In this document: positions 477 to 19,591 of the stretch, one piece after another
Numbering within the stretch: position 1 is the first letter of the stretch
How the letters are laid out: the number at the start of each line of letters is the position of its first letter
Assembly (NCBI GenBank): GCA_964291675.2
Contig: OZ219865.1
Coordinates: forward strand, 832,001 to 896,000
DNA from: Alphaproteobacteria bacterium
Lineage (GTDB): Bacteria; Pseudomonadota; Alphaproteobacteria; MPNO01
DNA length: 64,000 nt
Direction: 5' to 3'
Translations under genes and position numbers: made by a program
The notes under the pieces: model-generated
The model's database searches: none
The model's input: only the letters and a program-made list of their open reading frames with translations
Told to the model about the DNA's origin: nothing

Positions 477-502
477 TCCATACCGGCCTGGCGGCGGGTC
501 GA

Positions 503-590: not shown

Positions 591-635
591 GTGCGGGGGC
601 CGCGTCGAAGGACCGCCCGCGAGGGGTCCGCGGCG

Positions 636-1802: not shown

Positions 1803-2658
1803 GCGCGCCGCCGCGGACGCCCTGGAAGCGCCTTCCGGCAAGTGGTCGGGCGACGAGAACTTTCCGGTCGGCTCGTGGCTGCTGCCGGCCCGGCTGCGCC
1901 CGCACATCGCGGCCTACTACGCCATCGCGCGGACCACCGACGACATCGCCGACGACCCGGACCTGCTGCCGGAGGAGAAGATTCGACGGCTGGACGTCTT
2001 CGCCGCCGCGGTCGTCGGGGAGGCGGCGCCCGGGCCGGTCCCGGCGAGCGCGGCGCGCATGCGGGACAGCCTGGCCGCCACCGGGCTCGGGCCGCGCCAC
2101 GTGCTCGACATCATCGCCGCCTTCAGGCAGGACGCGACCAAGCGGCGCTACGCCTCGTGGGACGAGCTGATGGGCTATTGCAACCTGTCGGCGGCGCCGG
2201 TCGGGCGCTACGTCCTGGACCTGCACGGCGAGGACCGCGCCACCTGGGCCGTATCCGACCCGCTCTGCAACGCGCTCCAGGTGCTCAACCATCTGCAGGA
2301 TTGCCGCGACGACTACCTTGCGCTCGGCCGGGTCTATCTGCCCGAGCCCTGGCTGGCGGCGGCGGGGATCGGCGCCGACGCGCTGGCCGCCGAGCGTGCC
2401 GGCGCGGGCTTGCGCGCGGTGCTCGACCGCATGCTCGACGGCGTCGACGGGCTGATGGCAGAGGCCCGCCTGCTGCCGGGCGCGGTGCGCAGCCGGCGGC
2501 TCGCGATGGAGACCGCGGTCATCGTCCGCCTCGCCGGGCGCCTCACGGCGCTGCTGCGCGACGGCGACCCTCTCGCCCGCCGTGTCGCGCTCACCCGCCG
2601 GGACTTCGCCCGCGCCACCCTCGCCGGCGCCATCGGCGGCCTGGTGCTGCGCCGCTGA
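1795..2658 (+). CDS. hpnC: Squalene synthase-family HpnC (hydroxysqualene synthase)
   Basis: N-terminal ENFPVGSWLLP signature, RTTDDIAD, LQVLNHLQD, GRVYLP. Confidence 0.92.
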   Translation: MAERAAADALEAPSGKWSGDENFPVGSWLLPARLRPHIAAYYAIARTTDDIADDPDLLPEEKIRRLDVFAAAVVGEAAPGPVPASAARMRDSLAATGLGPRHVLDIIAAFRQDATKRRYASWDELMGYCNLSAAPVGRYVLDLHGEDRATWAVSDPLCNALQVLNHLQDCRDDYLALGRVYLPEPWLAAAGIGADALAAERAGAGLRAVLDRMLDGVDGLMAEARLLPGAVRSRRLAMETAVIVRLAGRLTALLRDGDPLARRVALTRRDFARATLAGAIGGLVLRR

Positions 2659-2718
2659 CTGAATTCGTTCGCAAAGATATTCCTGCAAATCATTGCTTAT
2701 AGGGAATTTCATGGTTTT

Positions 2719-2838
2719 GACCGGTGCCTGGCGATCGGCCGCCATGGACCGGTGACCGCGGAGCGGGCAAGGCGCATCGCCCACGAGACGCCGGGCAAGG
2801 TCGCCGCCGGGGAGGATCCGGCGGAGGGCCGCGCCCGG
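2719..2838 (+). pseudogene. Fragment of tyrosine integrase N-terminal arm-DNA-binding domain (Arm-DNA-bind_3/DUF4102-like)
   Basis: Frame 1 reads DRCLAIGRHGPVTAERARRIAHETPGKVAAGEDPAEGRAR, matching the typical TIGRHG..T.E.AR..A...L..V..G.DP pattern. No ATG, no catalytic domain. Confidence 0.7.
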
Positions 2839-3037
2839 TCGCCCAGTGGCGCGCGACGCCGCCCTCGTTCATGAGATCGACGGCTTCGACCGGCGGGCAG
2901 ACGCTCCTGACTTTCGACTTCCGGGGTTCTCAGGGTAGAGTCAGCGAGTTCTTGCTCTTTTGAACGCCGGCGTTAGTCTATATTACGTTGGACGGTCGAA
3001 AGGCCTAACACTTTGTGGAAACTGGAGGCTCACCATT

Positions 3038-3268
3038 ATGTCAGCTACAGAAGACCGTGTCAGAGAACTGTTCCGCCAACATTTGGACGCCGATCGCGAT
3101 CCGGATTTTAGTGTCGGATTGGGCGATTCGGGGATCTCGTCGATGGACGCGGTCAAATTCGTCAAGGAGGTCGGAGACGCGTTCAACGTGGAGATGCGCG
3201 CCGAGGACGTTTCGGAATTCCAGACCCTGGGGGACGTCGTCAGATATCTGGATACCCACGCCAGTTGA
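3038..3268 (+). CDS. supB: Stand-alone acyl carrier protein (SupB-like)
   Basis: 76 aa, acidic, LGDSGISSMDAV phosphopantetheine-site region, C-terminal FQTLGDVVRYL. GGAGG RBS at 3024-3028. Confidence 0.8.
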   Translation: MSATEDRVRELFRQHLDADRDPDFSVGLGDSGISSMDAVKFVKEVGDAFNVEMRAEDVSEFQTLGDVVRYLDTHAS

Positions 3269-3678
3269 TCGTCCCGGGTTAGGATATAGCCTGGGGGAAT
3301 CCATACCGGTGAAGCCGAGCACCCCGTTTTCCGGGGTGCTCGGCGCGTTGGGGGCAGGGACGCCCGGAGATGGCGGGTGTCGCAGAGGCGCCGAACGCTT
3401 CCGGTAGACCGGCACGTCACAGCGGTTCCGGCGCGCTGTCGTCTGTTCCTTGACGACGCGAAAGCCCTCTCCCTCTTTGCCGATCCCGAGTTGCAAGGAT
3501 CTTGGGGGACCGAAGCTCCGGATTGGCTCGAACATCCGGAGCATGCACGCTTGCGGGGCTTCCGGCATCCGCGGCTGAGGCACGGCTTTCCCGCTCTGCC
3601 GCGCGGCATTGGCCCGCTTCGGTTTCGTCGAGTCTTCCGCCCGGACGGTGAAGCCGAGGATCCCATGAAAGGACAACC

Positions 3679-4578
3679 GTGACTTCGGAGACGGTCTGGG
3701 AAATCCCCCAGCCGAATTCCGTGTGCGAGGTACACCTCCACGACGGATCGGTCACCACCGTGCGTCGTCACGGAAACCCATCCGGCCCCCGGCTGGTTCT
3801 AAGCCACGGCAACGGTCTTGCGATCGATCTCTACTATCCCTTCTGGTCATTGCTCGCCGACGATTTCGATGTGGTGGTCTACGACCTGCGAAACCACGGG
3901 TGGAACTCCGTTGGCGTTCGGCAAAACCACAATATTCCCATTCTGATGCATGACCACGATCTCGTTCTCGAAGCCGTGTTCCGTCGATACGGGGAACGGA
4001 CCACCGTCGGCGTGTTCCACTCGGTATCCGCTCTGATTTCGCTTCTGTCGTTTTCCAGGCGCTTCTCGGCGCAAATTCTCTTCGATCCTCCGCTGTGCAA
4101 GCCGACCGCGAACGAAGCGGAGTTCGATGCGGCCGTCGAGCGGCAGGCGGCACTGGTCCAACGGCGCGAATACCGGTTCCGGACGGAGGGGGAGTTCGCC
4201 GACTTCCTGGCGTACATGCGGGGCTTCAGGCGCGTGGTACCCGGGGTGCGCGAGCTCGTGGCCAGCACCACGCTTCGCCGATCCCCGGACGGGGAGGGTT
4301 TCGAGCTCCGATGTCCTCGGGAGTACGAAGCGCAGATCATGGAATACGTCAGGAGCTTCTCGCCGCTCATGGATCTGGAGGAGCTCTCCTGCCCGACCAA
4401 GGTCATCGGGGCCGACCCCACGCTGCCCAGCACGTACCTGCCGGCGTTCGACCTGAGCAAGATGCTGACCGTGGACTACGATTTCCTGCCCGAGTCGACC
4501 CACTTGCTCCAACTCGAGCAGCCGGCAAGATGCGCCGTGCTGCTCAAGGAGTTTCTCGCGAGCAATCGGATCGCCTAG
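3679..4578 (+). CDS. supD: Alpha/beta hydrolase (SupD-like)
   Basis: LSHGNG, YDLRNHG, VFHSVSA nucleophile elbow, THLLQLE catalytic His. Adjacent to ACP and PKS. Confidence 0.8.
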   Translation: MTSETVWEIPQPNSVCEVHLHDGSVTTVRRHGNPSGPRLVLSHGNGLAIDLYYPFWSLLADDFDVVVYDLRNHGWNSVGVRQNHNIPILMHDHDLVLEAVFRRYGERTTVGVFHSVSALISLLSFSRRFSAQILFDPPLCKPTANEAEFDAAVERQAALVQRREYRFRTEGEFADFLAYMRGFRRVVPGVRELVASTTLRRSPDGEGFELRCPREYEAQIMEYVRSFSPLMDLEELSCPTKVIGADPTLPSTYLPAFDLSKMLTVDYDFLPESTHLLQLEQPARCAVLLKEFLASNRIA

Positions 4579-4617
4579 GGCGGCGCCCGCCAGCGCGTAT
4601 GGTTGGCGGGCGAGAGA

Positions 4618-7600
4618 CTACGTCTTCGGCGCATCGACCCAATGGCGCCGGCGCTCGAACGGATAGCCCGGCACCGGGATGCGGCGCCGCGTCTCTCCCG
4701 CGAAGAGCCCGGCGAACGCGATCGGGAGCCCCGCCTCGTAGGCGCGGGCCACCGCCTGCACGAACCCGGCATCGACCTCCGGCGCAGCTCCCGGACCCGT
4801 CAGCACGACCGGCCCGCCAGCGCCATTCCCCGCCGCTACCGCGGCGCCCGCGGAGTCCGGCCAGTGAGAGGCGATCATCGGGCCGATCGACCCGCGAGGA
4901 CCGATCTCCACAACCGCCCCCACCCCCCGCTCCGCCAGCGTCCGGATGCATTGCCCGTGCGCGGCGGGCTCGCGCGGGTGTCGCAGTCCGAACGCCGTTT
5001 CAAGCATCTCTTCGGACCCCGTCACCCGGCCCGTGACGCCGCTCACCAGCGCGATGGTCGGTGGCCTGGGCACAAGTCCCGCGAGTGCCGCGTCGATACC
5101 GTCTGCCGCGCCGGCGGTTTTCGCCGTCTCCCGCGCCACGGCCAGCAGGAGCCCTTCTTCGAGGCCCAGCGCCCCAGCCGCATGTGCCGCCGCCAGCTCG
5201 CCCACGCCGAAACCGACAACCGCGCTCGGCCGGACTCCCACGCTCGACCACAGCGCGGTGAGCGCACACTGAAACGCATAGAGCGCCGGGTCGTCGAGCG
5301 TTCGCTCCGGGCCGGATTCGCCGGACAGCCAGTCGAGCAGCGACGCGCCGCGTTGCTCGCGAAGGACCGCCTCGCAGCGGTCGAAGAGCGCCCTCGCGAC
5401 CGGCTCGCCGCGATAGAGCGCTTGCGCCGCGGCAGCCGCATCGTCGCCCTCGCCGGGGTACGCGAACGCCGTCTTCGCCGGCTCGCAACCGTCTGGCCCG
5501 TTCGACCTGTCCGCGATCGCGCTCAAGCTCGCGTGGAGCGACGCCGCATCGTGAAAGACGACGCCGGCGCGGTGAGGGAAGTGGCTGCGGCCGATTCCGG
5601 CCGTCCACGCCATGTCGGCGAGCAACGACTCCGACGCGGACGGGAGGTTCGCCGCCGCCCCGTTGCGCTCGTCGAGCCAGGAGAGATACCGCCCGGCAAG
5701 CGTTCGCAAGGCGCCGTCCGACTTCCCCGAAAGCGGCAGGAGCCGAACCGCGCGCAAGCCGTCCGATTCCGTTACCGGCGCGTGGTCCCGGCCGGGATCG
5801 GGGAGAGAAATCGCGACCGTGCCCGGAGCCCCTTGCGGAGACGCCGCATCGACGGATCCATCGGTTCCGTTCGTCGCCCCGTATCCTTCCACCACGAGGT
5901 GCGCGTTCGAGCCGGAGATCCCGAAAGCGCTCACCGCCGCTCGGGGTGGCCGGCTACCGTCGAGGGGCCAGCCCGTCGGTTCCGAAGTCACCCGAACGGG
6001 AAGCCGGTCCCAGTCCAAATGCGGATTCGGCGCCTCGAAGTGCAGGTGTTTCGGGATCACGCCGCGGCGCATCGCGAGGACGACCTTGATGATCCCCGCG
6101 ACGCCCGCCGCCGCCTCGAGATGACCGATGTTGGTCTTGACCGTTCCCATCAACAGCGGGCGGGCGGGGTCTCGCCCCTCGCCGTAGACCGCCGCCGCCG
6201 CCTGCACCTCGATGGGATCCCCGAGCGCCGAGGCGGTGCCGTGCGCCTCGAGGTAATCCACCTCCGCAGGGGCGATCCCGGCCCGGGACAGGGCGTCCTC
6301 GATCACCGCCTCCTGGGCCGGCCCGTTCGGAACCGTCAGGCCTGCGCTCGCACCGTTGTGGTTCACGGCCGTTCCGCGAACGACCGCCCAAATGGGGTCG
6401 CCATCCGCCTCGGCGTCGGCGAGACGCTTGAGGACGACAATTCCGCAGCCCTCGCCGCGCACGTAACCGTCCGCGGCCGCATCGAAGGCTCTGCATTGTC
6501 CGGTCGAAGACAGCATGCCGACTTCGACGAAGAATTTGGTGATCGCGGAGGACAGGATCGCGTTGACTCCGCCTGCGAGTGCGAGGTTCACCTCGCCTCG
6601 ATGCAACGCCGAGACGGCCTCGTGCACCGCGGCGAGCGACGATGCGCAGGTCATGTCGAAGGGGATCGCCGGACCCATGAGCCCCAGCGCGAAGGCGACC
6701 CGCCCGGCGGCCACGCTCCCCGCTGTCTCGAGAACCGCGATATCCCTTCCGCTCCTGGCGATCACCTCCCGATACTCGGAGCCGCTGATCCCGACATACA
6801 CACCGGTGCGGCTGCCTTCCAGCCCGCCGGCGTCGATTCCCGCGTCCTCGAGCGCCTGCCAGCTCGTTTCGAGCAGCATCCGTTGCTGAGGGTCCACGGT
6901 CCGCGCCTCGATCGGCCGCATCCCGAAGAACCGTGCATCGAACTCGTCGATACCCGCGACAAATCCTCCGTACCGGAACGCCGCATTGTCGAAACCGGGG
7001 TCTTCGCCGGGAACCGGCTGAACAGCGGAGTCGGGCCGTCGGTCGGCGACCGCGTCGATGCCCGCCTCGAGTTGATTCCAGAACTCGGTGAGACCGCTGG
7101 CGCCGGGGAACCGGCAAGCCATGCCGACGATCGCGATCCCGTCGCGTTCGGCGGCGCGATTGTCGGCATGGGTTGGCGGCGGCCGCCGGTCGGGCCTTCG
7201 GCGGCGCGGCCGCTCAACCGGTCGCGCAGCCGTCTCGGCTGCGCCGCCCGCGCCGAGCTCTCCCAGCTCGCCTGCCAGGAATTGCGCGAGGGCGGCCGTG
7301 TGGGGATAGTCGAACATCACCGTGTTCGATGCGGTATAGACCCCGGCCAATCCCCGGTTCAGGCGGTTGCGCAGCTCCACCGCCATCAGCGAATCCATCC
7401 CGAGATCGAAGAATCTCGCGGTCGGGGACGGCGGCGACGATAGACGCAGCACCGCCTGCAACTCCTCCCGGAGGAAGGAGGCCAGCACGTCTTCCCGTTC
7501 CCCGGCGGGCACCGCCCGGAGCCGGGACAGGAGATCGTTCTCCGGAGCGGCCGCCGCGGGCTCGGCCTCGGCCGGAGTCCGGGTCATGAGATCTTCCAGG

Positions 7601-10600
7601 AGCGCCGGGCTCGCGCCGAAGCTCTCGGCATAGACCGACCAGTCGACGGCGGTCACCGCCCCGGCCGCGAGATCCTGCGACACGAGTTGATCGAAGGCCC
7701 GCAAGCCCTGCTGCGGCGTGACCCAGCGCACACCGCGGGCCGCAAGATGCTCCTCGATCCGGTCTCGTTGCTCCTCCGCCTCGCCGACCCCCGACCACGC
7801 GCCCCAGGCGATGGCCTGACCCGGCAGCCCCCGGGCGCGTCGGTGGGCAGCGAGCCGGTCGAGATAAGCATTGGCGGAGGCATGGTTCGCCTGACCCGCC
7901 GATCCGAGGATCCCCACCACGCTGGAAAAGAGGATGAAGAGATCCAGGTCGCGGTCCTCGGTCGCCCGGTGCAGGTACCAGGCGCCCAGAACCTTCGGCC
8001 ACAGGACCTGTTCGAACCGCTCCCAGCTCTGGTTCCCGAGCGCGCCGTCCGACAGCACGCCCACGCTGTGGATCACCCCGGCGAGCGGCGGAAGCTCGGC
8101 ATCCATCCGCGCGAGCATCGCATCCACAGCCGCACCGTCCGTCATGTCGGCAAGCTCCACGCGAACAGTGACGCCGCGCGCTTCGAGCGCGCGCATCGCG
8201 TCCTCGGCCGCGGGGTCCGGGGGGCGCCGCCCGTTCAGCACGATCGTCTTCGCGCCCCGGTCCGCGAGCTGGCCGGCCACCGCGCAGCCGATCCCGCCGA
8301 GGCCCCCGGTGACGAGATAGGTCCGGTCCTCCCGCAGCCGGCCCCGGGTGAGCGGCGGCATGGTGAGGACGATCTTTCCGATATGCCGGGCCGAGCGCAT
8401 GAACGCCATCGCCGGCGCCGCCTCGGCGAGCGGCCAGCGGCTGTGGGGCAGCGGGGTCAGCTCTCCCGACTCCAGCCGGTCCATCACGCCCCGCAGGGCC
8501 GCGCCCGGCCGGGCGGGATCGGATTCCTTGAGAACGTCCAGCCGCAACACCGAGTAGGCCACGTCCGGACGGGCCGCCGACATCGCCGCCTCGCTCCAGA
8601 TGTCCCGCGCGCCGAGCTCGACGAATCGGCCGGCGGGCGCGAGACATTCGAGGCTCGCCTCGATGAAGCCCGGCCCGGTGAGGCTGTTCAGCACGACGTC
8701 GACGCCCCGGCCGGCCGTCGCATCGAGGATCTCCTTGCCGAAGGCGGTCTGCCGGCTGTCGAACACCCGCGAAACGCCGAGCGAGCGGAGATAGTCCTGC
8801 TTGGATGCGCTCGCCGTCGCGATCGCTTCCGCACCGGCTGCATGGGCAAGCTGGATCGCCGCCAGCCCGACACCGCCGGCCCCGGCGTGGATCAGCACCC
8901 GCTCGCCGGCCTTCAGCCCGGCCAGATCGAACGCGAGCGCCGCGGTGGCGAAGGCTACCGGAACGGTCGCCAGCGCCGCCGCCGGCATCCGCTCCGGCGC
9001 CGGCGCCACGAGCTCGCCCCGGGTCACGACTTCCGGCCCGAACGCGCCGAACGCAAGGCCCACCACGCGGTCGCCGACGGCAACGCCCGCGACCTCCGGT
9101 CCCGCCTCGACGACCCGGCCGCACATCTCGCGGCCGAGCAATCCGGTATCGAGGGCTCCGGTCGCCCGCAGCACGTCCCGGAAGTTGAGACCCGCCGCCT
9201 CGACCGCCACCCGAACCTCTCCGGGCTCAAGCCCGTTCGATGGCGCCGTCTCCACCCGCAGGCCGTCCAGGGATCCGCCCTCGTCGGGCGCAAGCCGCCA
9301 GCCGGACTCCTCGGGGAGCGCGATCCGCGGCGTTGCGGACCCGGTCCGGACGAGGCGCGCAACATGTCGCCTGCCGCGCCGGAAGGCGATGTGGTTCTCC
9401 GAGCCGGGGAACAGCAGCTCCTCGGCAAGCTCCGACCGCTGCACGGGCTCTTCGGGGTCGAGATCGATCATCCGCGCCCCGAGCTGCAGCGCTTCTCTGG
9501 CCACCGCCTTGCCGAAGCCCCACAGCGCGGCCCCGGCAATCTCGCCATCGCGTTCGCGCTCCAGCGACTGGGCGCCCCGGGTGACGAGCCACAGGCCCTT
9601 TGCGGGCGCGGCGCCCGCGTCCAGAACCCCCTGCACGAGCGAAAGGGCGCTCGTGACCGCCTTTCTCACGTCGTGCGCGACCTGTTCTGTCGTGGCCGCC
9701 GCGCCATGTCCGTCGAGCGCCGCGAGATGGACGATGCCGTGGAGGGGCGCGTCCCCGGGCAGCCCCTCGACGAGCGAACGCCAGGACTCCCGGCGTTCCG
9801 CCTGGACGAACGCCCTGAAGACGCCGGCCCCCGTGACCGGCGCCGCGTCTGCCGCCTCGTCCTCTCCCGCGATCACCACAGTCTGATTCCGGGCTGCAAG
9901 CGCCGCAGCGAGCGCCTCGCCGGCACCGTCGCGGTCCGGCGCCACGATCCAGACTCCGCGCGGCAGCGCGACCTCCTCCGGGCCGCGCGCCACGATGATG
10001 CCCGGACCGAGCGGCCGCCCGTCGTCGAAGGTGTCGACCCCCAGCACCTCCGTCTCCGCGAAACCCGCATCCGAGAACGCCCGGCGCCATGTCTCGGGAG
10101 CCGCGAGCGCATGGTCCGGCCGGTAGCTGTCGGCGAAGCGCCACCAGCCGTCCAGCATCCCGAAGGTGAGATCCTGGAGGTGCCGGCCGCGTATGAGTTC
10201 GAGGGCCAGGAGCTGGCCCCGGGGCGCGAGCAGCGACCGGCAGTGGGCCAGCGTCTCCCCGAGATCCCGGGTGGTGTGAAGCACGTTCGCCGCGACGACC
10301 AGGTCGTAGCCATGAGGATCGAAACCCTGCGCCGCGGGATCCGTCTCGATGTCGAGCGCGCGATACTCGATCGGCGCTCCGCTCGCCGCGAAGCGTGACT
10401 CCGCCTCGGCGAAGAATCCCGCCGAGATGTCGGTGAACATGTAGTCGAAACGCCCTTCCGGAAGCTCCGACAGGATCGGCTCGGTCGCCGATCCGGTGCC
10501 CGCGCCGACCTCCAGCACCCGCAGGCGCCGGCCTTCCGGCAGGTTTTCGACGGCGGCCCGGACCGCATCGGCCAGCATCCTGTTCGCTGCGCGGGCGGCA

Positions 10601-13600
10601 GGCGCGGTGCGATACAAGTCTGCCGCGCTCGTGCCGTGGGTGCCGAAGAGCAGCGAAAGCGGATCCGTGCGGCCCTGCAGCACCTCCGCGAGGGCGCCGC
10701 CGCATTGTTCGAGGAGTCCGAGCTCGTTCGAGCCATGCGGGTGACGGGCACGCAACTGTTCCGCCAGGCGCTGCGGATCGCCGAGGCTCGCGTCCGGCAG
10801 CGCGTCCCCGGATCCGACGACCACGGCGAACCCGCCATCCGCTGCGCGCTCCAGTATCCCCGCGCCGGCCAGAATTCCGAGCAGCCGGCCGAACAGCCGC
10901 CGGTGCGGCGCCACGACACCCAACGCGCCGCGGAGGGCCTCCGCGTCGACGGCCGCGCCCGCGCTGCGCCGCCAGCCCAGCCGGTCGAGCGCCGCGAGCA
11001 CATAGGCGCCGCCAAGCCGGTCCAGGTCCCCGAGCAGGGCGGCCCGCTCTTCGGGCCGGACACCCTCGGCCGCGAGATAGTCGGGGAACGATCCGGTCCG
11101 GGCGCCGATCGATTCCGGGCCTTCGAGGAATTGTGCCGACCGAAGCCCTCCGGACAGGGGCTGTTCCCGCCAGACGACTTCGTACAGGAGATCCTTGAGC
11201 GCGTTCGACGCCGAGAGCATGGCGGTGCGCGTCGCCCGCTTCATCGTGAACCCGTCCACGCCGCCGATCGGCGCGCCGGCCGGATCGAACAGGCTCAGAT
11301 CGGCCTTGACGATTTCCGGAGAATCGTCCGCCTGCGCCTCGGAATGGCCCGTTCGGGCGGCCTCGCGCATGCGGACGTGGCAATAGATCCGTTCGGGCGG
11401 TGGCCCCGCCAGCCACAGCCGATCCCATCCGAACGGCATGTAGGTGGACTTCCCGGCGACGCGGGCCTGGTCGCGCGCCGCGAGCACGGTCTGAAAGCAG
11501 CCGTCGAGCAGGATCGGATGCAGGTCGAGGCCGCCGCCGTCCAGGCAGTCCGGGAGCGCCACCTCGCCGACCGCCTCGCCGGGGCCGGACCACACGGTCT
11601 GGAGGGGGCGAAACGCGGGCCCGAGCACCACCCTGGTGCTGACCTTGTTGCGGTAGAGCGCTGCGACGTCTCCCGGCGTCAACGCCGCCTTGAGGCCTTC
11701 GAGGTCGATCCGTTCCCCGCCTTCCGGCCGGCCGCTGCCCGGCGACATCCGGCCTTCGAGATGCAGGGTCCAGCCGTCCTCGCCGCCGCGGCTGAACACC
11801 TCGAAGCGGCGCGGCGACGCGGCGTCGGCGCCATCGAACACGATCTGGAGCTTCCGGCCGCTCTCTGCCGTCTCGTCCTGCGCATCCTCCTGCGGAAGAA
11901 TCATCGGGCTGTGCAGCTGGCAATCCTCCAGGACCACCGAACGGGCGCGCTCGCCCCACAGCACCGTGGCCGCCATGGTGGCGAACATCGCGCCCGGCAC
12001 CACGACCTGGCCGAACACCAGGTGATCCTTCACCCATGCCGGGTCCGAGGCGAATATCTCCGTCTCGAACGCGGCCTCCCCTCGCGGCGATTCGTGCCGC
12101 ACGCCCAGCAGGGGATGGCCCGTGTTCTGGCGACGCCGCCTGGGCGGCTCGATCCAATGGCGCTGGCGCTGGAACGGATAGCCCGGCAACTGGATGCGGC
12201 GGCGTTCCTCGCCGGCGAACAGGCCTTCGAAGGCGATCGGAAAGCCCGCCCCGTAGGCGCCGGCGACCGCTGCCACGAAGGCGTCGCCCCCGGCCGGCTC
12301 CGGCGAGGTCTCGGACGGCCGGCGAAGACTGGCCAGCGCTGTCGGCCCCCCGGCCTCGCCGCGCGCCGATTCCGGCCAGCTCAGCGTAGCCATCGGACCG
12401 AGCACCGCGTGCGGACCGATCTCGACGAGCGCATCGACGCCGATCTCCGCCAGCGTCTCCACGCAGGCCCGGAACGCGACCGGTTCGCGGGCCTGGCGCC
12501 GCCAGTATGCGGCGTCGAGCGTCTGCCCCGGTTCGATCGCACGGCCGGTCAGGTTGCTCACGAAAGGCAGCGACGGCGGCGAGAAGGACATCGTCGACAG
12601 CACCGCTTCCAGATCGTCCAGCGCGGGCTCGACCATGGCGCTGTGGTATGCGGGGCTCTTGCGCAGCCGCGCGACCCGGATGTCCTGCGCTTCGAAGCGC
12701 TCGAGGACTGCCGCGATCTCCGCCGCCGGCCCGCTGATCACCTGATGCGCGCCGTTATCCGCGGCGATGCACACGCCGATCCCCTTCCCGGACGCGTTGT
12801 GCCGCTCCAGGGCGTCCGCCACGCCGGCGGCCGGGGCGAACACGGCTGCCATCGCTCCCTCGCCCGGCAAGGCGCCGATCAGTGCGCCCCGCGCCGCGGC
12901 GAATCGCAGACCGTCCTCCAGGCTGAACACACCGGCGGCGTGCGCGGCGGCAATCTCTCCGAGGCTGTGCCCGAACACCGCGTCCGGCCGCACGCCGATG
13001 CCGGACCACAGCGCCGTCAGCGCGCATTCGAGCGCGTAGATCGCGGGCTGTTTCCACTGCGGATCGTCCAGGTCTCCCGTGGCGCCGGGCCTGCCGAACA
13101 TCGCGTCGAGCAGCGAGCCGTTCCGCTCTTTCCCGAGCAGGGCGTCGCAACGGTCGAGAACGGCGCGCACCGCGGGCTCGGTCTCGTAGAGATCGGCGCC
13201 CATGCCGACCCACTGGCTCGCCTGGCCGGTATAGGCGAACGCGACCTTCGCAGGCGCCGTCGCGGCAGGCCTCTCGCCGCCCTCGGCGCAGCTCCGCAAG
13301 CCGGCGCGCAGGTCCTCGGCGTCGCGAAACGTCACGGCGCAGCGATGGCTGAAATGGCTGCGCCCGACACCTGCGGTCCACGCCATGTCGGCGAGCGGGG
13401 AGCCGTTCCCATCCGCTTGGTCGAGCCACGAGAGATACCGGCCCGTGAGCTCCCTGAGGGCTGCGTCGGACTTCCCGGAAAGCGGCAAGATTCGAAGCTC
13501 GCGCGGAGAGAGCCCGGCGATCGACGGAATGTTCTCGAACGGACCGGGCAGGGAAACGGACACCGGGGTCGGCGCGCCGGCCGGCCACGGCCTCGCGCCG

Positions 13601-15006
13601 TTCGCGGCCGCGTCTGCGCCGTCTCCGTACCCTTCCACGATGACGTGGGAGTTGGTTCCGGAGAAGCCGAACGAGCTGACGCCGGCCAGCGGCCCGCGGC
13701 CGGACGCGGCCGGCCAGTCGGTCTCCGCCGCGGTGACCTGTACCGGAAAGCTGTCCCAGTCGATCTGCGGGTTGGGTGTGCGGAAGTTGAGATGCCTCGG
13801 GATCGTGCCCCGGCGCATCGAGAGCAGGACCTTGATGAGACCCGCGGCCCCCGCCGCGGCCGCCAGATGACCGATATTGGTCTTCACCGAGCCGACAAGC
13901 AGCGGACTGTCCGCCGCCCGTCCCCTGCCGTAGACCGATCCCGCCGCGGCCAGCTCCGTCGGGTCGCCCAGCTTGGTCCCGGTCCCGTGCGCTTCCAGGT
14001 AGTCCACCTGCGCGGGCGGAATGCCGGCCCGCGCCAACGCCGCCTCGATCACATGCGCCTGGGTCAGGGCCCGCGGGGCGGGCAGTCCCGGGCGTTCCCC
14101 GTCCTGGTTTATGGCCGAGCCGCGGATCACCCCCCAGATCCGGTCGCCGGCCGCCTCCGCCTCGCTCAGGCGCTTGAGAACCAGCATGCCGCAGCCTTCG
14201 CTGCGCACGAACCCGTCCGCGCGTTCGTCGAAGGTCCAGCACTGGCCGGTGGGCGACAGCATGCCGGCGTTCGCGAAGGCTTCCGTGGTCGTGGGCGACA
14301 GGATCACGCAAACCCCGCCGGTCAGCGCAATATCCGCCTCGCCGCGCTGGAGGCCCGCCACGGCCTGATGGACGGCGACCAGCGCCGAAGAGCAGGCGGT
14401 GTCCACGGCGATCGACGGGCCCTCGAGGCCCAGCGCGAAGGAAACGCGCCCGGTTGCGGTGCTGAAGCGGTTGCCCGTCACCAGATAGAGCGGCGTGTCG
14501 GGCCCGACCGAGCCGCCTTCGTCGCGGACGATTTCCTGATATTCGTAACTGCCGATACCGGCATAGACTCCGGTGCGGCTGCCGACCAGCCGGTCCGGGC
14601 CGATGCCCGCGTCCTCCAGAGCCTCCCAGCTCAATTCCAACAGCAGCCGCTGCTGCGGGTCGAGCGACTGCGCCTCCAGCGGCGAGATGCGGAAGAACGC
14701 CTCGTCGAACCGGTCGATGTCGGAAAGGAAGGCGCCGTAGCGACTGGCGTCGTGCACGGTCACGTCGTCGGGAAACATCTCGTTCACCCGTCCGTCGCCC
14801 GGACCGGGCGAGCCGTGGGTCACGGCGTTGCCGCCCGACGCCAGCAGCTTCCAGAAGGCGTCCAGATTCTCGGCGCCGGGAAACCGGCACGCCATACCCA
14901 CCACGGCGATCGGATCGTCGCCCGTCCTGGCGGATTCCGGGGCCGGGAGGTCGGCGCCTCCGGTATGCGCTTCGTCGTGAGGTTGAGATTGTGCCCGTTC
15001 CGCCAT
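4618..15006 (-). CDS. supA: Type I PKS, SupA-like: KS-AT-DH-cMT-ER-KR-ACP-KS-AT(inactive)
   Basis: KS1 DTACSS/EAHGTGT/KTNIGH; AT1 GHSLG, AYHS; DH HLVFGQVVVP; MT LEVGAGTG, ANVLH; ER LIHAGAGGVG; KR VTGGLGGIG; ACP LGMDSL; KS2 DMTCASS/EAHGTAS/KTNIGH; AT2 GFGVG. Architecture matches the sponge-symbiont sup PKS. Start could also be at 15081. Confidence 0.92.
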   Translation of the reverse strand: MAERAQSQPHDEAHTGGADLPAPESARTGDDPIAVVGMACRFPGAENLDAFWKLLASGGNAVTHGSPGPGDGRVNEMFPDDVTVHDASRYGAFLSDIDRFDEAFFRISPLEAQSLDPQQRLLLELSWEALEDAGIGPDRLVGSRTGVYAGIGSYEYQEIVRDEGGSVGPDTPLYLVTGNRFSTATGRVSFALGLEGPSIAVDTACSSALVAVHQAVAGLQRGEADIALTGGVCVILSPTTTEAFANAGMLSPTGQCWTFDERADGFVRSEGCGMLVLKRLSEAEAAGDRIWGVIRGSAINQDGERPGLPAPRALTQAHVIEAALARAGIPPAQVDYLEAHGTGTKLGDPTELAAAGSVYGRGRAADSPLLVGSVKTNIGHLAAAAGAAGLIKVLLSMRRGTIPRHLNFRTPNPQIDWDSFPVQVTAAETDWPAASGRGPLAGVSSFGFSGTNSHVIVEGYGDGADAAANGARPWPAGAPTPVSVSLPGPFENIPSIAGLSPRELRILPLSGKSDAALRELTGRYLSWLDQADGNGSPLADMAWTAGVGRSHFSHRCAVTFRDAEDLRAGLRSCAEGGERPAATAPAKVAFAYTGQASQWVGMGADLYETEPAVRAVLDRCDALLGKERNGSLLDAMFGRPGATGDLDDPQWKQPAIYALECALTALWSGIGVRPDAVFGHSLGEIAAAHAAGVFSLEDGLRFAAARGALIGALPGEGAMAAVFAPAAGVADALERHNASGKGIGVCIAADNGAHQVISGPAAEIAAVLERFEAQDIRVARLRKSPAYHSAMVEPALDDLEAVLSTMSFSPPSLPFVSNLTGRAIEPGQTLDAAYWRRQAREPVAFRACVETLAEIGVDALVEIGPHAVLGPMATLSWPESARGEAGGPTALASLRRPSETSPEPAGGDAFVAAVAGAYGAGFPIAFEGLFAGEERRRIQLPGYPFQRQRHWIEPPRRRRQNTGHPLLGVRHESPRGEAAFETEIFASDPAWVKDHLVFGQVVVPGAMFATMAATVLWGERARSVVLEDCQLHSPMILPQEDAQDETAESGRKLQIVFDGADAASPRRFEVFSRGGEDGWTLHLEGRMSPGSGRPEGGERIDLEGLKAALTPGDVAALYRNKVSTRVVLGPAFRPLQTVWSGPGEAVGEVALPDCLDGGGLDLHPILLDGCFQTVLAARDQARVAGKSTYMPFGWDRLWLAGPPPERIYCHVRMREAARTGHSEAQADDSPEIVKADLSLFDPAGAPIGGVDGFTMKRATRTAMLSASNALKDLLYEVVWREQPLSGGLRSAQFLEGPESIGARTGSFPDYLAAEGVRPEERAALLGDLDRLGGAYVLAALDRLGWRRSAGAAVDAEALRGALGVVAPHRRLFGRLLGILAGAGILERAADGGFAVVVGSGDALPDASLGDPQRLAEQLRARHPHGSNELGLLEQCGGALAEVLQGRTDPLSLLFGTHGTSAADLYRTAPAARAANRMLADAVRAAVENLPEGRRLRVLEVGAGTGSATEPILSELPEGRFDYMFTDISAGFFAEAESRFAASGAPIEYRALDIETDPAAQGFDPHGYDLVVAANVLHTTRDLGETLAHCRSLLAPRGQLLALELIRGRHLQDLTFGMLDGWWRFADSYRPDHALAAPETWRRAFSDAGFAETEVLGVDTFDDGRPLGPGIIVARGPEEVALPRGVWIVAPDRDGAGEALAAALAARNQTVVIAGEDEAADAAPVTGAGVFRAFVQAERRESWRSLVEGLPGDAPLHGIVHLAALDGHGAAATTEQVAHDVRKAVTSALSLVQGVLDAGAAPAKGLWLVTRGAQSLERERDGEIAGAALWGFGKAVAREALQLGARMIDLDPEEPVQRSELAEELLFPGSENHIAFRRGRRHVARLVRTGSATPRIALPEESGWRLAPDEGGSLDGLRVETAPSNGLEPGEVRVAVEAAGLNFRDVLRATGALDTGLLGREMCGRVVEAGPEVAGVAVGDRVVGLAFGAFGPEVVTRGELVAPAPERMPAAALATVPVAFATAALAFDLAGLKAGERVLIHAGAGGVGLAAIQLAHAAGAEAIATASASKQDYLRSLGVSRVFDSRQTAFGKEILDATAGRGVDVVLNSLTGPGFIEASLECLAPAGRFVELGARDIWSEAAMSAARPDVAYSVLRLDVLKESDPARPGAALRGVMDRLESGELTPLPHSRWPLAEAAPAMAFMRSARHIGKIVLTMPPLTRGRLREDRTYLVTGGLGGIGCAVAGQLADRGAKTIVLNGRRPPDPAAEDAMRALEARGVTVRVELADMTDGAAVDAMLARMDAELPPLAGVIHSVGVLSDGALGNQSWERFEQVLWPKVLGAWYLHRATEDRDLDLFILFSSVVGILGSAGQANHASANAYLDRLAAHRRARGLPGQAIAWGAWSGVGEAEEQRDRIEEHLAARGVRWVTPQQGLRAFDQLVSQDLAAGAVTAVDWSVYAESFGASPALLEDLMTRTPAEAEPAAAAPENDLLSRLRAVPAGEREDVLASFLREELQAVLRLSSPPSPTARFFDLGMDSLMAVELRNRLNRGLAGVYTASNTVMFDYPHTAALAQFLAGELGELGAGGAAETAARPVERPRRRRPDRRPPPTHADNRAAERDGIAIVGMACRFPGASGLTEFWNQLEAGIDAVADRRPDSAVQPVPGEDPGFDNAAFRYGGFVAGIDEFDARFFGMRPIEARTVDPQQRMLLETSWQALEDAGIDAGGLEGSRTGVYVGISGSEYREVIARSGRDIAVLETAGSVAAGRVAFALGLMGPAIPFDMTCASSLAAVHEAVSALHRGEVNLALAGGVNAILSSAITKFFVEVGMLSSTGQCRAFDAAADGYVRGEGCGIVVLKRLADAEADGDPIWAVVRGTAVNHNGASAGLTVPNGPAQEAVIEDALSRAGIAPAEVDYLEAHGTASALGDPIEVQAAAAVYGEGRDPARPLLMGTVKTNIGHLEAAAGVAGIIKVVLAMRRGVIPKHLHFEAPNPHLDWDRLPVRVTSEPTGWPLDGSRPPRAAVSAFGISGSNAHLVVEGYGATNGTDGSVDAASPQGAPGTVAISLPDPGRDHAPVTESDGLRAVRLLPLSGKSDGALRTLAGRYLSWLDERNGAAANLPSASESLLADMAWTAGIGRSHFPHRAGVVFHDAASLHASLSAIADRSNGPDGCEPAKTAFAYPGEGDDAAAAAQALYRGEPVARALFDRCEAVLREQRGASLLDWLSGESGPERTLDDPALYAFQCALTALWSSVGVRPSAVVGFGVGELAAAHAAGALGLEEGLLLAVARETAKTAGAADGIDAALAGLVPRPPTIALVSGVTGRVTGSEEMLETAFGLRHPREPAAHGQCIRTLAERGVGAVVEIGPRGSIGPMIASHWPDSAGAAVAAGNGAGGPVVLTGPGAAPEVDAGFVQAVARAYEAGLPIAFAGLFAGETRRRIPVPGYPFERRRHWVDAPKT

Positions 15007-15147
15007 CGAAGACCCCTGTCGCGAGTTCAGCAAGGTTCCAGCCCGTCTCCCATCTTCTCTCACCCAGGCCCGCTTTTCCATCCGTCAGCGGTCAGGGAAC
15101 GAATCGGGAGGCAACGCGACGGGAAGGGCGTCCCGCACGCGCGCCCA

Positions 15148-16911
15148 CTACGCCCGCCCGGTCGCCGCCGGGAGGTTGACCCGGACGGTGACGATATCCA
15201 GGTCATGGTATTGCTGATGGCGCACGGACGATGCGAGGTGCCGGAGAAGCCGCAGCGGGACCTCCTGCTCGATCTGCGTCTCGTCGCCGTGATCCCCGAG
15301 CAGAGCGAGTCTGTCCTCGATGTTCTCCCCTTGCGGAGCGACCGCGAGCTCCAGAACCACGTCGTCCTCGACCCGGGCGGCGACCAGCCGCAGGCGGCGC
15401 TGGCGACCGGATTCCGCGGCGCCGTCCTGCGGCCGGGCAAGGCTCGACAGAGCCTCCTCGCCGACCGCGTCGAGACGGTCCGCCATGCCGGCGTCCAGGC
15501 CGTGGCGCGCGGCGAATGCGCGAAGGAACTCCCTGATCCTTGCGAGCGCGGCCGGATCGAGCGCCACCTCCATCCGGCTGCGGCGCGGCCCGGTCAGGTC
15601 CGTCAACATCGTCATGACGATGGCCGCGAGCCCGCCGGAGACCACGCCGTTGGCGAACAGGCCGCCGGCGAATTGCGACACCTGCGCCGGGAATATCATG
15701 CCGCTCTGGAAGCCGACCCCGGTCCAGAAGGCGAGGCCGGCGATCAGCCCCTTGCGGTAATCGAGGCCGTTCTGAACCAGGACCTTGATTCCGACCAGGA
15801 AGAGCAGCGCCAGCAACACCGTGAGAAACGCGCCGCTGACCGCGCCGGGGATCGCCAGGACGGCGGCGAGCGCCTTGGGCAGGAATGCGAGGATGACGAA
15901 GAGCGCCCCGGCCGCGATCCCGATGCCGCGGGCCGCGACGCCGGTAAGCTCGGTGAGCGACGCGCCGACGGAATTGGCATTGTTGGGCACGGTTCCGGCG
16001 AGACCGCTGAGAAGGTTGCTCAGCCCGTCGACGTTCACCGCGCCCTGCACCGCCCGGTAATCCACGGCGCGCCGCTGGCGCCACGATACCGCTTGCACGG
16101 CAACGCAACTGCCGATCGTGCGCAGCGTCACGATCGGGGTCAACAACAGGAATACCGGAAGCAGCGACCAGAAAGCGGGGCCGAAGTCGAGATCAAAGCC
16201 CGGCCACTCGATGCCGGGAACGCCGATCCACGGGGCGTCGACGACGCGGCCCACGTCGTAGAGACCGACGATGCCCGCCACCGCCGAGCCGACAAGGACC
16301 CCGATGACCGGCGCCCAGAGGCGCGGGCTCCGCGTCGACTTGAGCGCGATGCCGGCGATGACGACAACCGTGACGGCGGCGCATAGCGGCGCGGCGTAGG
16401 CGGGCGTTCCCTCCGGCGCGCGGGTCAGCAAGCCGAAGACGGCGGGCGTTGCGCTGACCGGCACCAGCATCAGCACGGTGCCCGAAACGGTCGGCGTCAG
16501 GATGCGGCGAAACCAGACGATCCGCGCCGACAGCACGAATTGCAGCAGCGCCGAGACGACGACCAGGGTCGCGAGCAATGCACCGCCGCCGCGTTCGACC
16601 GCCGCGATGCAGGGCGCGATGAAGGCGGTCGAGCTGTTCAGCACCAGCACGTGGCCCGAGCCGATTCGGCCGTAACGGATCGCCTGCAGCGCCGTGGCCA
16701 CGCCGCACACCGCTATGGAGGCGAACACCGCCCAGGACAGGTAGGCGTCGCTCGCGCCGGCGGCCCGCATGATCACCGTCGGAATCAGTATCGAGGCCGC
16801 GACGATCAGAACCGCGAGCTGCGCGCCGAGGCCGATGGCGAGCGCGGGAGGAATCCTGTCGTCGGCCTGGTAGCGGAGCGCCGGTCCGCGCGGCGAAGGA
16901 TCTCCGGTCAT
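15148..16911 (-). CDS. supE: NCS2 (xanthine/uracil) family permease with C-terminal RsbW/HATPase-like domain (SupE-like)
   Basis: Many hydrophobic segments with NCS2-like motifs (LTPTVSGTV, DGLSNLLSGLAGTVPN). Soluble C-terminal ~140 aa. Directly upstream of supA on the same strand. Confidence 0.8.
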   Translation of the reverse strand: MTGDPSPRGPALRYQADDRIPPALAIGLGAQLAVLIVAASILIPTVIMRAAGASDAYLSWAVFASIAVCGVATALQAIRYGRIGSGHVLVLNSSTAFIAPCIAAVERGGGALLATLVVVSALLQFVLSARIVWFRRILTPTVSGTVLMLVPVSATPAVFGLLTRAPEGTPAYAAPLCAAVTVVVIAGIALKSTRSPRLWAPVIGVLVGSAVAGIVGLYDVGRVVDAPWIGVPGIEWPGFDLDFGPAFWSLLPVFLLLTPIVTLRTIGSCVAVQAVSWRQRRAVDYRAVQGAVNVDGLSNLLSGLAGTVPNNANSVGASLTELTGVAARGIGIAAGALFVILAFLPKALAAVLAIPGAVSGAFLTVLLALLFLVGIKVLVQNGLDYRKGLIAGLAFWTGVGFQSGMIFPAQVSQFAGGLFANGVVSGGLAAIVMTMLTDLTGPRRSRMEVALDPAALARIREFLRAFAARHGLDAGMADRLDAVGEEALSSLARPQDGAAESGRQRRLRLVAARVEDDVVLELAVAPQGENIEDRLALLGDHGDETQIEQEVPLRLLRHLASSVRHQQYHDLDIVTVRVNLPAATGRA

Positions 16912-17254
16912 GCCGTGCGCGCTCCCCTGCGCGGCTCAGCGTCGCGCCGGCTCGACGGGCCGGCCGGTCACGCGCTCTCGGCGCTTCACCGGGAAATCCC
17001 CGAGATACACCTCACGGTCCTTCCCTGGAACTCTGATTGGCGGGCGGTTGGCACAGTATTGTACGGTCGAATGTTCGTCGACGGGCGATTGGCGCCATCG
17101 ACGGACGGCCCTGCGAACCGGGCGGCCGATTCCCCGCACCGCAGCGGGAGAGCGTCCTCCTCGGTGGAATGGACACTCCGAAGGTCCCGGCGCCGGTCGG
17201 AACCGCGGCGGCGCCACGATGGCAGCGTCGACCGGCGCACTCTCCTCGCCGGCG

Positions 17255-17466
17255 CGCCGCGAGGTCGAGAGTGTCGATGAGAAGCCGGGAACCGTCCGTC
17301 CGAAGGACGCAAGGGGCGATCTCGTCGACTGGAAGCCGGTCCGCATCGCGGCCGCCAAGGGCGGTCTCGAGGTCTACCGGAGCGAGACGACGGAGTCGCG
17401 CGCCGGCGACCGGCTGCGGTTCACCCGCAACGACCCGGCCCGGGGCTCGCCAACGGGCAGCTCGCG
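17255..17466 (+). pseudogene. Fragment of TrwC/TraI (MOB-F) conjugative relaxase-helicase
   Basis: RREVESVDEKPGTVRPKDARGDLVDWKPVRIAAAKGGLEVYRSETTESRAGDRLRFTRNDPA, continuing after a frameshift as GLANGQLA. Matches the GD(R)xRFTRND..GLxNG helicase segment of TrwC/TraI. Confidence 0.7.
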
Positions 17467-17708
17467 AGACCCGACGGGCTGGAATCGGCACGGTCCGGCG
17501 GATTACTTGCATTTTACGTCGGCAACCCGGGAATACCGGGTCCACGGCCAGAGCGACTTGTCGGGATAGTGTCGATACTTGACTTGAGAGCATCCTGCGG
17601 CTCGGAAATGAAAGGCCAAGAGAGGTTGAAGACATGGAGCTCTCGGGCTCTGTTCGGCCCCAGCCAGATCGATTGGTCCCAGATCGATTCAATGTGAAAC
17701 ATTAGGGC

Positions 17709-18368
17709 CTACTCTCCCGCCTCCGCCGCCAGCCCGGCCGCGGTCTCGCCGATCCGACGGACCAGCGAGTCCACCCCCTCCCGGCGCAGGATCGCCGCGT
17801 ACTCGGACCGCTTGGTCGCCACCTCGCTGATCGTGCCCTTGAGGTAGACATCGACCGCGTGCCAGCCGTCTCGCAGGCGGCGCAGCACGTAGTTGAGCCG
17901 GATCGGCGCCTTGCCCGGCGCGACCACCTCGGTCTTGACCAGCACGGCGTTGGGGCGCAGCTCGGACGCGCCCAGGGTCCGAAAGCTCTGGCCGGACCAG
18001 CCGTCGAAGCGATGCGCGTAGGTGGCGGCGACGAGGCCGGAGAAGGCCTCGACGAAGCGATTCCTCTGGGTCTTGGAGAACCCCTTCCAGTGGCGCCGCC
18101 CGGCCACCATGCGGCTCATCAGGCGGAGATGGAAGGTCTTGCCGATGGCCGGCGCGATCAGGCGGTGCCGCCCGGCATAGCCGAGCGCCTCGGCGTTCTT
18201 CATCGCCTCGAGCAGGGTCGCGTGGAACCCCTCGACGAGCTTGACCGGGTCGGACCGGTCGGCCGCCGCCGGCGCGGCGAGGAAGACGGCTATGACGCCC
18301 GGGGCGAGCGCCCGGGCGGCGGACCGGATAGCCGGGGTCAATCGCGCCTCCACTCCTGGCGCCCTCAT
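17709..18368 (-). CDS. hpnM: Hopanoid-associated periplasmic protein HpnM (MlaC/Ttg2D family)
   Basis: Signal-peptide-like N-terminus, VDVYLKGTISEVATKRSEY MlaC-like motif, divergent from hpnH. Confidence 0.8.
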   Translation of the reverse strand: MRAPGVEARLTPAIRSAARALAPGVIAVFLAAPAAADRSDPVKLVEGFHATLLEAMKNAEALGYAGRHRLIAPAIGKTFHLRLMSRMVAGRRHWKGFSKTQRNRFVEAFSGLVAATYAHRFDGWSGQSFRTLGASELRPNAVLVKTEVVAPGKAPIRLNYVLRRLRDGWHAVDVYLKGTISEVATKRSEYAAILRREGVDSLVRRIGETAAGLAAEAGE

Positions 18369-18451: not shown

Positions 18452-19591
18452 ATGGGCGTTCAGCTCTCGCAACAGCTCCGCATCGGCGCCTATATCCTGA
18501 AGCAGCGGCTCTCGGGGGTCAGGCGCTACCCGCTGGTCCTCATGCTGGAGCCGCTGTTCCGCTGCAACCTCGCCTGCGCCGGCTGCGGCAAGATCGACTA
18601 CCCCGACTCGATCCTCGACCGGCGGATGAGCGTCGCCGAGGCGATCGGCGCGGTCGAGGAATGCGGCGCCCCGGTGGTCTCGATCGCCGGCGGCGAGCCG
18701 CTGATCCACCGCGAGATCGACCGCATCGTCGAGGCCGTCGTGGCGCGCCGGCGCTACGTCTATCTCTGCACCAACGCGCTCTTGCTGGAGAAGAAGCTCG
18801 ACCTGTTCGAGCCGGGACCGTTCTTCTCGTTCTCCATCCATCTCGACGGTCCCCGCGCGGTGCACGACCGCTCGGTGTGCCGGGACGGGGTCTACGACGT
18901 AGCCCTCGGCGCGCTCGCCGCCGCACGGGCGCGCGGCTTCCGGGTGTCGGTCAACTGCACCCTGTTCGACGGCGTGGACGCCGGCGAGGTCGCCGGGTTC
19001 TTCGATACCGTCACCGGGCTCGGGGTCGACGGGATCACGGTCTCGCCAGGCTACGCCTATGAGCGGGCGCCGGACCAGCAGCACTTCCTCAACCGGCACA
19101 AGACAAGGGCGCTGTTCCGCGCCGTCTTCGCCCGCGCGAGCGGACGCCGATGGCCGCTCAGCCACTCGGCGCTCTATCTCGACTTCCTGGCCGGCAACCG
19201 GAGCTATCGCTGCACGCCGTGGGGCAACCCGACGCGCAACGTGTTCGGCTGGCAGCGCCCCTGCTACCTGCTCGGCGAGGGCTACGCGCCCAGCTTCCGC
19301 GCGCTGATGGAGGAGACCGACTGGGACTCCTACGGCACCGGCAACTACCAGAAATGCGCCGACTGCATGGCCCATTGCGGCTACGAGGCGACGGCGGTGG
19401 CGGACCTCGCCGCGCATCCCTGGAAGGCGCTCCCGATCGCGCTGTCGGGCATCCGCACCGAGGGGGAGATGGCGCCCGACATCCCGCTCGCCGGCGCCCG
19501 CCCGGCGGAGTACGTGTTCGCCGGGCTGGTCGAGGAACGCGCCGGGGCTCAACCCCCGGCGGGCGCGAGGGCGAACCCGTCGGGGCAGTAG
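18452..19591 (+). CDS. hpnH: Adenosyl-hopene transferase HpnH (radical SAM)
   Basis: YPLVLMLEPLFRCNLACAGCGKI, CTPWGNPTRNVFGWQRPCYL, CADCMAHCGYE. Confidence 0.95.
   Translation: MGVQLSQQLRIGAYILKQRLSGVRRYPLVLMLEPLFRCNLACAGCGKIDYPDSILDRRMSVAEAIGAVEECGAPVVSIAGGEPLIHREIDRIVEAVVARRRYVYLCTNALLLEKKLDLFEPGPFFSFSIHLDGPRAVHDRSVCRDGVYDVALGALAAARARGFRVSVNCTLFDGVDAGEVAGFFDTVTGLGVDGITVSPGYAYERAPDQQHFLNRHKTRALFRAVFARASGRRWPLSHSALYLDFLAGNRSYRCTPWGNPTRNVFGWQRPCYLLGEGYAPSFRALMEETDWDSYGTGNYQKCADCMAHCGYEATAVADLAAHPWKALPIALSGIRTEGEMAPDIPLAGARPAEYVFAGLVEERAGAQPPAGARANPSGQ

Follow-up and report, generated by a model that had tools for sequence, protein, structure and literature searches.

The 64,000-nt window analysed here (positions 832,001 to 896,000 of contig OZ219865.1; coordinates given without a contig are positions in this window) belongs to an alphaproteobacterial genome designated G000 (contigs C1 and C2; 4.8 Mb, genome G+C 0.694, completeness 94%, reported contamination 6.7%), and was found to carry a polyketide synthase (PKS) cassette in the spacer between the tail-to-tail hopanoid genes hpnC and hpnM. 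The cassette, which is complete and fits the known 'sup' ('sponge symbiont ubiquitous PKS', SupA–SupE; Fieseler et al. 2007, Hochmuth et al. 2010) kind of sponge symbionts, includes genes for an acyl carrier protein (ACP), an alpha/beta hydrolase, a type I PKS and an NCS2 permease. It is enclosed by short relics of an integrase, a relaxase and an element terminus. The region at about 2677–17684 is a horizontally acquired island, and it is probable, though we hold this with only modest confidence, that it was brought in by an element that carried the cassette and then decayed.

Insertion site and mobile-element relics

As the G+C content of the window is about 70–76%, genes were chosen by codon-position G+C and then by family. 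The left side of the island is flanked by hpnB (507–1802, + strand), encoding a hopene-associated glycosyltransferase (NCBIfam TIGR03469, 476 bits against a cut-off of 379; third-position G+C, GC3, 0.94), and by hpnC (1795–2658, + strand), which encodes squalene synthase HpnC (TIGR03464, 263 bits against 250) and is the last host gene on that side. To the right, the first host gene is hpnM (17709–18368, − strand; TIGR03481, 170 bits against 160), and this is followed by hpnH (18452–19591, + strand), encoding adenosyl-hopene transferase (TIGR03470, 540 bits against 225). These four are the only hpn genes present and all exceed the NCBIfam cut-offs, in agreement with the first-pass annotation, which had placed hpnB and hpnC on one side of the cassette and hpnM and hpnH on the other. 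Beyond them, unrelated catabolic and transport genes were found.

The island is a real insertion, the unoccupied site being precisely preserved in relatives, as had also been anticipated. Among the genomes of the same genus (G001–G011, n=11), hpnC and hpnM were found tail to tail, separated by a gap of tens to ~300 nt and followed by hpnH, in 9/11 (G001, G002, G004, G005, G006, G007, G008, G010 and G011). The join is base-exact in G010, where blastn placed window base 2649 directly next to 17695 with nothing between them, such that 2650–17694 is absent and the stop codons of hpnC and hpnM overlap. Alignments of congeners across hpnC extend to window positions 2649–2676, and foreign DNA begins after 2676; a spacer at 2659–2676 is common to G000 and its closest relative, G009 (the blastn match to contig C108 of G009 ends at 2676; pairwise alignment). 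HpnM-type proteins are present in 55/61 genomes searched, and no match at the HpnM level was found in G003.

The gene content to the left of the site varies. G010 was found to have no hpnB, and its upstream gene directly precedes hpnC (window 470–1784 compared with locus L041), while the other eight congeners with hpnC next to hpnM carry at least part of hpnB beside hpnC, except G004, in which the stretch examined ends at hpnC.

In G009, DNA beyond hpnC continues as in G000 at C1:944785, and hpnM is followed by an intact double palindrome and then by 34 kb collinear with G000 C1:339683–378833. Large rearrangements therefore distinguish G009 (loci L042 and L056) from G000, with breakpoints within the hpnC/hpnM spacer, that on the hpnM side being at the intact double palindrome. 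Because hpnC and hpnM have been separated by these rearrangements, G009 is uninformative as to whether the relics occur without the cassette.

The first-pass annotation had reported fragments of an integrase (2719–2838) and a relaxase (17255–17466) at the two ends of the cassette, and both proved to be real. The matches are far above chance and represent very short internal pieces rather than decayed whole genes. The integrase relic (2695–2847, + strand) corresponds to aa 87–129 of a 429-aa tyrosine integrase and matches the C-terminal half of Pfam Arm-DNA-bind_3 (E 7e-6; 26.5 bits, just below the cut-off of 27; ~2695–2835 in the frame 2689–2871). A 43-aa portion (2719–2847) shares 79% identity with the 429-aa integrase encoded at G000 C2:3217941–3219230 (tblastn E 5e-14), and 74% with a second intact G000 integrase of 455 aa (C2:1630660–1632027). 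At the DNA level, 84% identity extends over exactly 123 nt and there is no homology on either side, indicating that the relic is a fragment bounded by deletion breakpoints. The 5' part of the gene, the catalytic domain and the adjoining attachment (att) site are missing.

The relaxase relic (17258–17446, + strand) is an internal piece, aa 817–879 of 1053, of a TrwC/TraI-type (MOBF) relaxase-helicase (NCBIfam TraI, E 2e-4), with 51% identity over 63 aa to the TrwC proteins encoded at G000 C2:81955–85116 and C1:235981–239637 (E 8e-11). It also matches MobF/TraI genes in five plasmid records (E 4e-5 to 5e-3).

A third relic, absent from the first-pass annotation, is the far terminus of the element, bearing its att core where the island ends on the right. 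The integrase-distal terminus (17506–17688, − strand; ~180 nt) is homologous to the far ends of two elements resident in G000, E63 and E47, and matches G000 C2:1568877–1569020 with a tblastn E of 5e-7. A three-way DNA alignment with these elements revealed an invariant CCTAATGTTTCAC followed by conserved blocks. The 11-bp att core TAATGTTTCAC (17685–17695, − strand), which forms the right boundary, abuts hpnM, ends at the base where the G010 join resumes (17695), and is the direct repeat of E63 and E47. The topology is also that of E63 and E47, with the integrase at one end and the terminus and att core at the other. A search for direct or inverted repeats flanking the island showed only the KS/AT paralogy within the PKS, and there is no tRNA gene in the window that could have served as the target.

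Resident elements and the attachment site

E63 (G000 C2:1568855–1632197; 63 kb; loci L145–L148) and E47 (C2:3217773–3264361; 47 kb; L149–L151) each have the integrase at the end opposite the terminus, reading inward, and are bounded on either side by directly repeated copies of TAATGTTTCAC. Each carries genes for a ~1390-aa TrwC+AAA_30 relaxase, SSB, and YAcAr and NYN proteins, together with many insertion sequences (IS), and E63 additionally includes genes for a group II intron reverse transcriptase, a fatty-acid desaturase and a TRAP transporter. Their G+C content in 2-kb steps ranges from 0.51 to 0.75, compared with 0.694 for the genome. The two sequences that flank E63 lie next to each other in G001 and G008, which shows that E63 was itself inserted.

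The target site was reconstructed as a palindromic unit, GTTTCACGTGAAAC, present in 25 copies in G000. This unit looks like a repetitive extragenic palindrome (REP)-like sequence used as attB by this integrase family, though G001 and G008 lack the palindrome at their unoccupied E63 sites, which are therefore uninformative about the attB model. Copies of GTTTCACGTGAAAC are often paired, either 37 nt apart or 2–6.6 kb apart (an example is at C1:339672–339730), and the pairs with kb spacing might bracket small elements.

In their general organisation, E63 and E47 resemble integrative mobilizable elements (IMEs) and genomic islands that have a P4-type tyrosine integrase and a MOBF (TrwC) relaxase, sharing with them an Arm-DNA-bind_3 N-terminus, an integrase located at one end and reading inward, short direct repeats at both ends, a TrwC+AAA_30 relaxase, SSB, and cargo and IS. 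The island differs from such elements in having been reduced to three short relics with a single att core, and in its target, which is the palindromic REP-like GTTTCACGTGAAAC and not a tRNA gene.

The first-pass annotation had proposed an integrative and conjugative element (ICE) or an IME as the source. The G000 elements share with ICEs an integrase, a relaxase and, in two elements other than E63 and E47, a coupling-protein gene adjoining the relaxase gene, but no VirB4/TrbE gene was found; PF03135, the sole type IV secretion family searched, had 0 matches across the G000 genome (94% complete). No transfer apparatus was found among the 44 scanned open reading frames of E63 and E47, and there are no type IV secretion genes in the island. 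Self-transfer of the G000 elements is thus not supported, and as no VirB4-type gene was found in G000, 'mobilizable element relic' is a better label than 'ICE'; the integrase, relaxase and terminus relics are consistent with the integrative mobilizable part of the proposal. G000 encodes no fewer than 12 integrase paralogues alongside six TrwC proteins, with no VirB4/TrbE-family match, and its mobilome appears helper-dependent.

Relatedness of the cassette and origin of the island

The relatedness of the cassette is incongruent with that of its hosts, as the first-pass annotation had suggested it might be. Between G009 and G000, the sequences flanking the site are 92.6–96.4% identical in nucleotide sequence, whereas the cassettes share only 81.6%. 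The reverse is seen with G006, in which the hpn genes share 68–81% nucleotide identity with those of G000 and the cassette 89–92%. A further cassette, in a record titled as a Rhodospirillaceae metagenome-assembled genome (MAG; locus L067), is 91.7% identical over 3598–14561, whereas its own flank is 76% identical to a different G000 locus (C1:376917–378620); homology of this locus to the cassette begins at window position 3014 and continues to 14561, where the contig ends.

Using the first ketosynthase domain (KS1) as the query, a two-KS sup-type PKS was identified in 6/11 congeners, G002 (two copies), G004, G006, G008, G009 and G011 (two copies), always away from the hpn locus, and in 0/49 genomes outside the genus at E<=1e-40. 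G007 has just a 39%-identical KS from a different PKS. In the complete genome of G008 the cassette is 1.37 Mb from the hpn genes, and in G006 it is located between aroC and tlyA-dxs-ispA. The G006 copy (L045/L046, contig C15) looks to be decaying, as an IS66-family element splits the hydrolase gene and the PKS frame is broken, with KS2 requiring a change of frame; no ACP or permease gene was found beside it.

A wider survey was made by scanning the hydrolase alignment against one genome per species, and from 591 relatives the best 78 loci were kept; as these may overlap the congener set, the two sets are not summed. MAG titles assign the loci to eight phyla, namely Pseudomonadota (37), Acidobacteriota (16), Nitrospirota (8), Latescibacterota (6), Gemmatimonadota (4), Chloroflexota (2), Nitrospinota (1) and Verrucomicrobiota (1), with four rows of the tree having no phylum on record. 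Within the stretch examined, ACP was found at 62 of the 78 loci, KS at 68, a methyltransferase (MT) at 63 and the permease at 23, and in relatives the permease is inverted or elsewhere. The hydrolase tree, a quick maximum-likelihood search, required 20 changes of phylum label against a minimum of seven, though MAG binning errors could add some of these, and several mixed-phylum pairs are on starred branches. Members of the genus fall in three separate clades. One locus, L097 (Bryobacterales), includes a gene for an HpnH-like radical SAM protein (L097 3962–5020; 40% identical) ~5 kb from the ACP gene, and no other of the 78 loci has an hpn-like neighbour.

In the sequence of events that we favour, site-specific recombination would have placed an element carrying the cassette into a palindromic, REP-like attB that lies downstream of hpnM, after which deletions may have stripped out the backbone, including the relaxase and the att site of the integrase along with the bulk of the integrase itself, thereby fixing the cassette cargo in place. 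That the cassette was cargo when the element integrated is suggested by the relics, which stand in the correct order and orientation around it with nothing else between.

Several observations weigh against this scenario. Only one att core survives, and at the left junction the alignment score for a REP or att remnant was within the range of shuffled sequences. The relaxase relic is unlike the relaxases of E63 and E47, with no match better than E 0.1, and its derivation from another lineage suggests more than one event, such that more than one element may have contributed relics. The closest cassettes share only 3014–14561 (L067) or 3677–15148 (G006) with the island, without the DNA that bears the relics. 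When the flanks of the survey loci (10 kb where the contig allows) were searched by tblastn with two integrases and four relaxases of G000, which detects only proteins related to those of G000 itself, there were no matches at any of the best 78 related loci (0/78). The integrase and relaxase families were likewise not found beside the eight in-genus copies, in the stretches examined. Finally, a G+C gradient, with ACP lowest, then hydrolase, then PKS, was also present in 5/5 other cassette loci checked; the low G+C of the ACP and hydrolase genes is therefore intrinsic to the cassette, and composition does not date its arrival.

The earlier proposal that the cluster arrived on an element is supported in part, in that the relics are real and enclose the cassette, while its cargo role would be an interpretation of that arrangement against which the 0/78 and 0/8 counts must be set. 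None of the three outcomes that the proposal had set out as refuting it was observed. The expectation that the same remnants would flank other sup loci failed for queries derived from G000. As to composition, GC3 is 0.63–0.88 in the island against 0.94 in host genes.

A less probable account, though one that we take seriously, is that there were two arrivals, an IME having integrated beside hpnM and decayed, and the sup cassette having come later by recombination that replaced the interior of the element. The two lineages of relics would fit this account, the integrase and terminus being like those of E63 and E47 and the relaxase like those near C2:82k and C1:236k, as would the lack of such genes at the survey loci and by the in-genus copies. 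The cassette also moves as a smaller unit, with homology starting at 3014 or 3677 and over by 15148 and the permease varying in position and orientation, and the six TrwC and 12 or more integrase genes of G000 offer abundant partners for recombination. However, the cassette sits exactly within the two ends of the element and no second junction scars were found, nor was any relative identified with the relics but without the cassette, the nearest, G009, being rearranged at this point and uninformative.

A further alternative is an ancestral cassette that the other members of the genus have since lost from this locus, the relics being chance similarity. This view draws on the presence of a sup-type cassette somewhere in 6/11 congener genomes, but is very improbable given that hpnC adjoins hpnM without a scar in 9/11 congeners, one join being base-exact, that congener cassettes are at other loci and in different clades, that the relic matches have E values of 5e-14, 8e-11 and 5e-7 against a single 4.8-Mb genome, and that GC3 differs between host and island.

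An artefact of assembly or binning, in which a contig from another community member was joined into G000, is similarly most unlikely. The contamination reported for G000 (6.7%) and a run depth over the PKS several-fold that of the flanks could be taken to suggest one, the depth being explained by the many related cassettes present in those runs, but a Logan contig of 830 nt from run X1 spans 2429–3258 without differences, covering hpnC, the integrase relic and the ACP gene and hence the left junction, and the right junction is at the att core used by elements of G000 itself, whose integrases are the best matches of the relics. Run X1, which may be the source data set, contains 98% of sampled words of 1800–3700. 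Among the listed run records, none crosses the right junction, and no contig joins 2650 to 17695 as expected of an empty-site allele. The label 'sponge metagenome' is attached to 13/20 listed runs, of which X2–X4 hold pieces 90–100% alike, mostly on the PKS. Contigs from an RNA library (records 9–16) are 90–95% alike on the hydrolase, PKS and permease genes, and these indicate that the library contains related cassettes, without showing that the G000 copy is transcribed.

Descriptions of sponge microbiomes count the sup cassette among their commonest biosynthetic loci. In passages of the sup literature that match sup terms, no mobile-element relics around a sup cluster are mentioned. This locus offers a base-exact empty site, discordant relatedness within one genus and the only vehicle relics among the loci examined. 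A general mechanism, in which MOBF-type IMEs with integrases that target REP-like palindromes carry sup cassettes as cargo from one sponge-associated bacterium to another, is possible but doubtful. If it were true, no copy before this one would have been caught with its vehicle's integrase, relaxase and att terminus still in place, and the long-suspected horizontal spread of sup would become mechanistically testable. What the locus provides for a testable hypothesis is concrete, namely the integrase, the 11-bp core and the target palindrome. As the sup cassette is itself already known, the novelty is modest, and its context in the husk of an IME at a palindromic att site is a useful single example.

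The first-pass annotation had also remarked that two membrane-lipid pathways lie side by side. This is correct as to position, with hpn genes on both sides, but the location of the cassette beside hopanoid genes looks like a consequence of the palindromic att site, not of a functional link. The pairing is most simply an accident of att position and should not be taken as a coupling of the two pathways.

Genes of the sup-type cassette

The ACP, hydrolase, PKS and permease genes named by the first-pass annotation were all recovered at or near the positions it gave, using Pfam and NCBIfam. A non-coding stretch of 380 nt separates hpnC from the gene for the discrete 76-aa ACP (3038–3268, + strand; PP-binding, E 1e-9; GC 54%), the start of which was refined by reading the sequence, and the ACP encoded in L067 is 80% identical. 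The alpha/beta hydrolase (3679–4578, + strand; Abhydrolase_6, E 4e-11), for which the best 78 of 591 relatives are 57–89% identical, is the probable chain-release enzyme. An open reading frame between these two genes, orf101 (3377–3682), was dropped as a gene because it is unconserved, L067 having no counterpart of window 3405–3557, and matched no family.

The type I PKS (4618–15081, − strand; 3487 aa with no internal stop) has the Pfam domain order KS-AT-DH-cMT-ER-KR-ACP-KS-AT, and many homologues of 3.4–3.6 kaa have an identical domain list. The KS and acyltransferase (AT) domains were judged by textbook PKS motifs. KS1 and KS2 each retain the Cys-His-His residues. In an alignment of KS1-AT1 with KS2-AT2, the second AT was found to have GFG in place of GHS, to have lost the GQ.SQ-type motif and to be missing ~110 aa, and is thus a structural remnant. 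At the KS2-AT2 end of the protein (window 4618–7200), the terminal KS retains its catalytic triad, whereas the terminal AT is dead and truncated; as no ACP follows, the free ACP probably serves the terminal KS.

The NCS2 permease gene (15148–16911, − strand; Xan_ur_permease, E 2e-33; 4613 homologues at E<=1e-30) is separated from hpnM by ~800 nt with no gene. The C-terminal ~150 aa of the permease (window 15148–15600) form a soluble extension with weak similarity (E 0.006) to HATPase_c_2, the fold of anti-sigma-factor kinases, and PF13581 is in the precomputed list of one among 120 listed permease homologues. In PMC3908369, anti-anti-sigma factor genes are listed beside a SupE-like permease.

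Identification of the cassette as sup is favoured by its architecture, gene set and distribution; no protein named Sup was present among the best 120 of 2423 PKS matches or the best 120 of 4613 permease matches. The sup PKS reportedly consists of a single full module, KS-AT-DH-MT-ER-KR-ACP. The 3487-aa PKS contains such a module, methylating and fully reducing, followed by the extra KS and the degenerate AT. As in sup, the type I PKS of the cassette is small and lipid-type, amounts essentially to one module and includes a C-methyltransferase, and the sup accessory set includes a permease, as does the set found here, where ACP, hydrolase and NCS2 permease genes accompany the PKS gene. SupE is given as a permease in a BLAST table (PMC3908369), and the sup passages available yielded no sup gene list beyond this 'SupE permease'; excerpts of a paper on Palauibacterales contain nothing on sup. 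In passages of several papers, sup is characterised as a small, sponge-specific monomodular system, proposed but unproven as a source of branched fatty acids (PMC4245539, PMC3908369, PMC9864124, PMC12795557, PMC4849084, PMC11351353, PMC10469786), and in one of these it is widespread in sponge microbiomes, with mid-chain or methyl-branched fatty acids proposed, not shown, as the product (PMC4245539). The product of the cassette in G000 would likewise be methyl-branched fatty acids, as proposed in papers though never demonstrated.

A promoter and terminator scan of 2500–4700 found nothing above shuffled sequences. The only Rfam match was a sub-threshold one to ASpks (6136–6210, + strand; 35 bits against 52), antisense to KS2, and this probably merely reflects a conserved KS coding motif.

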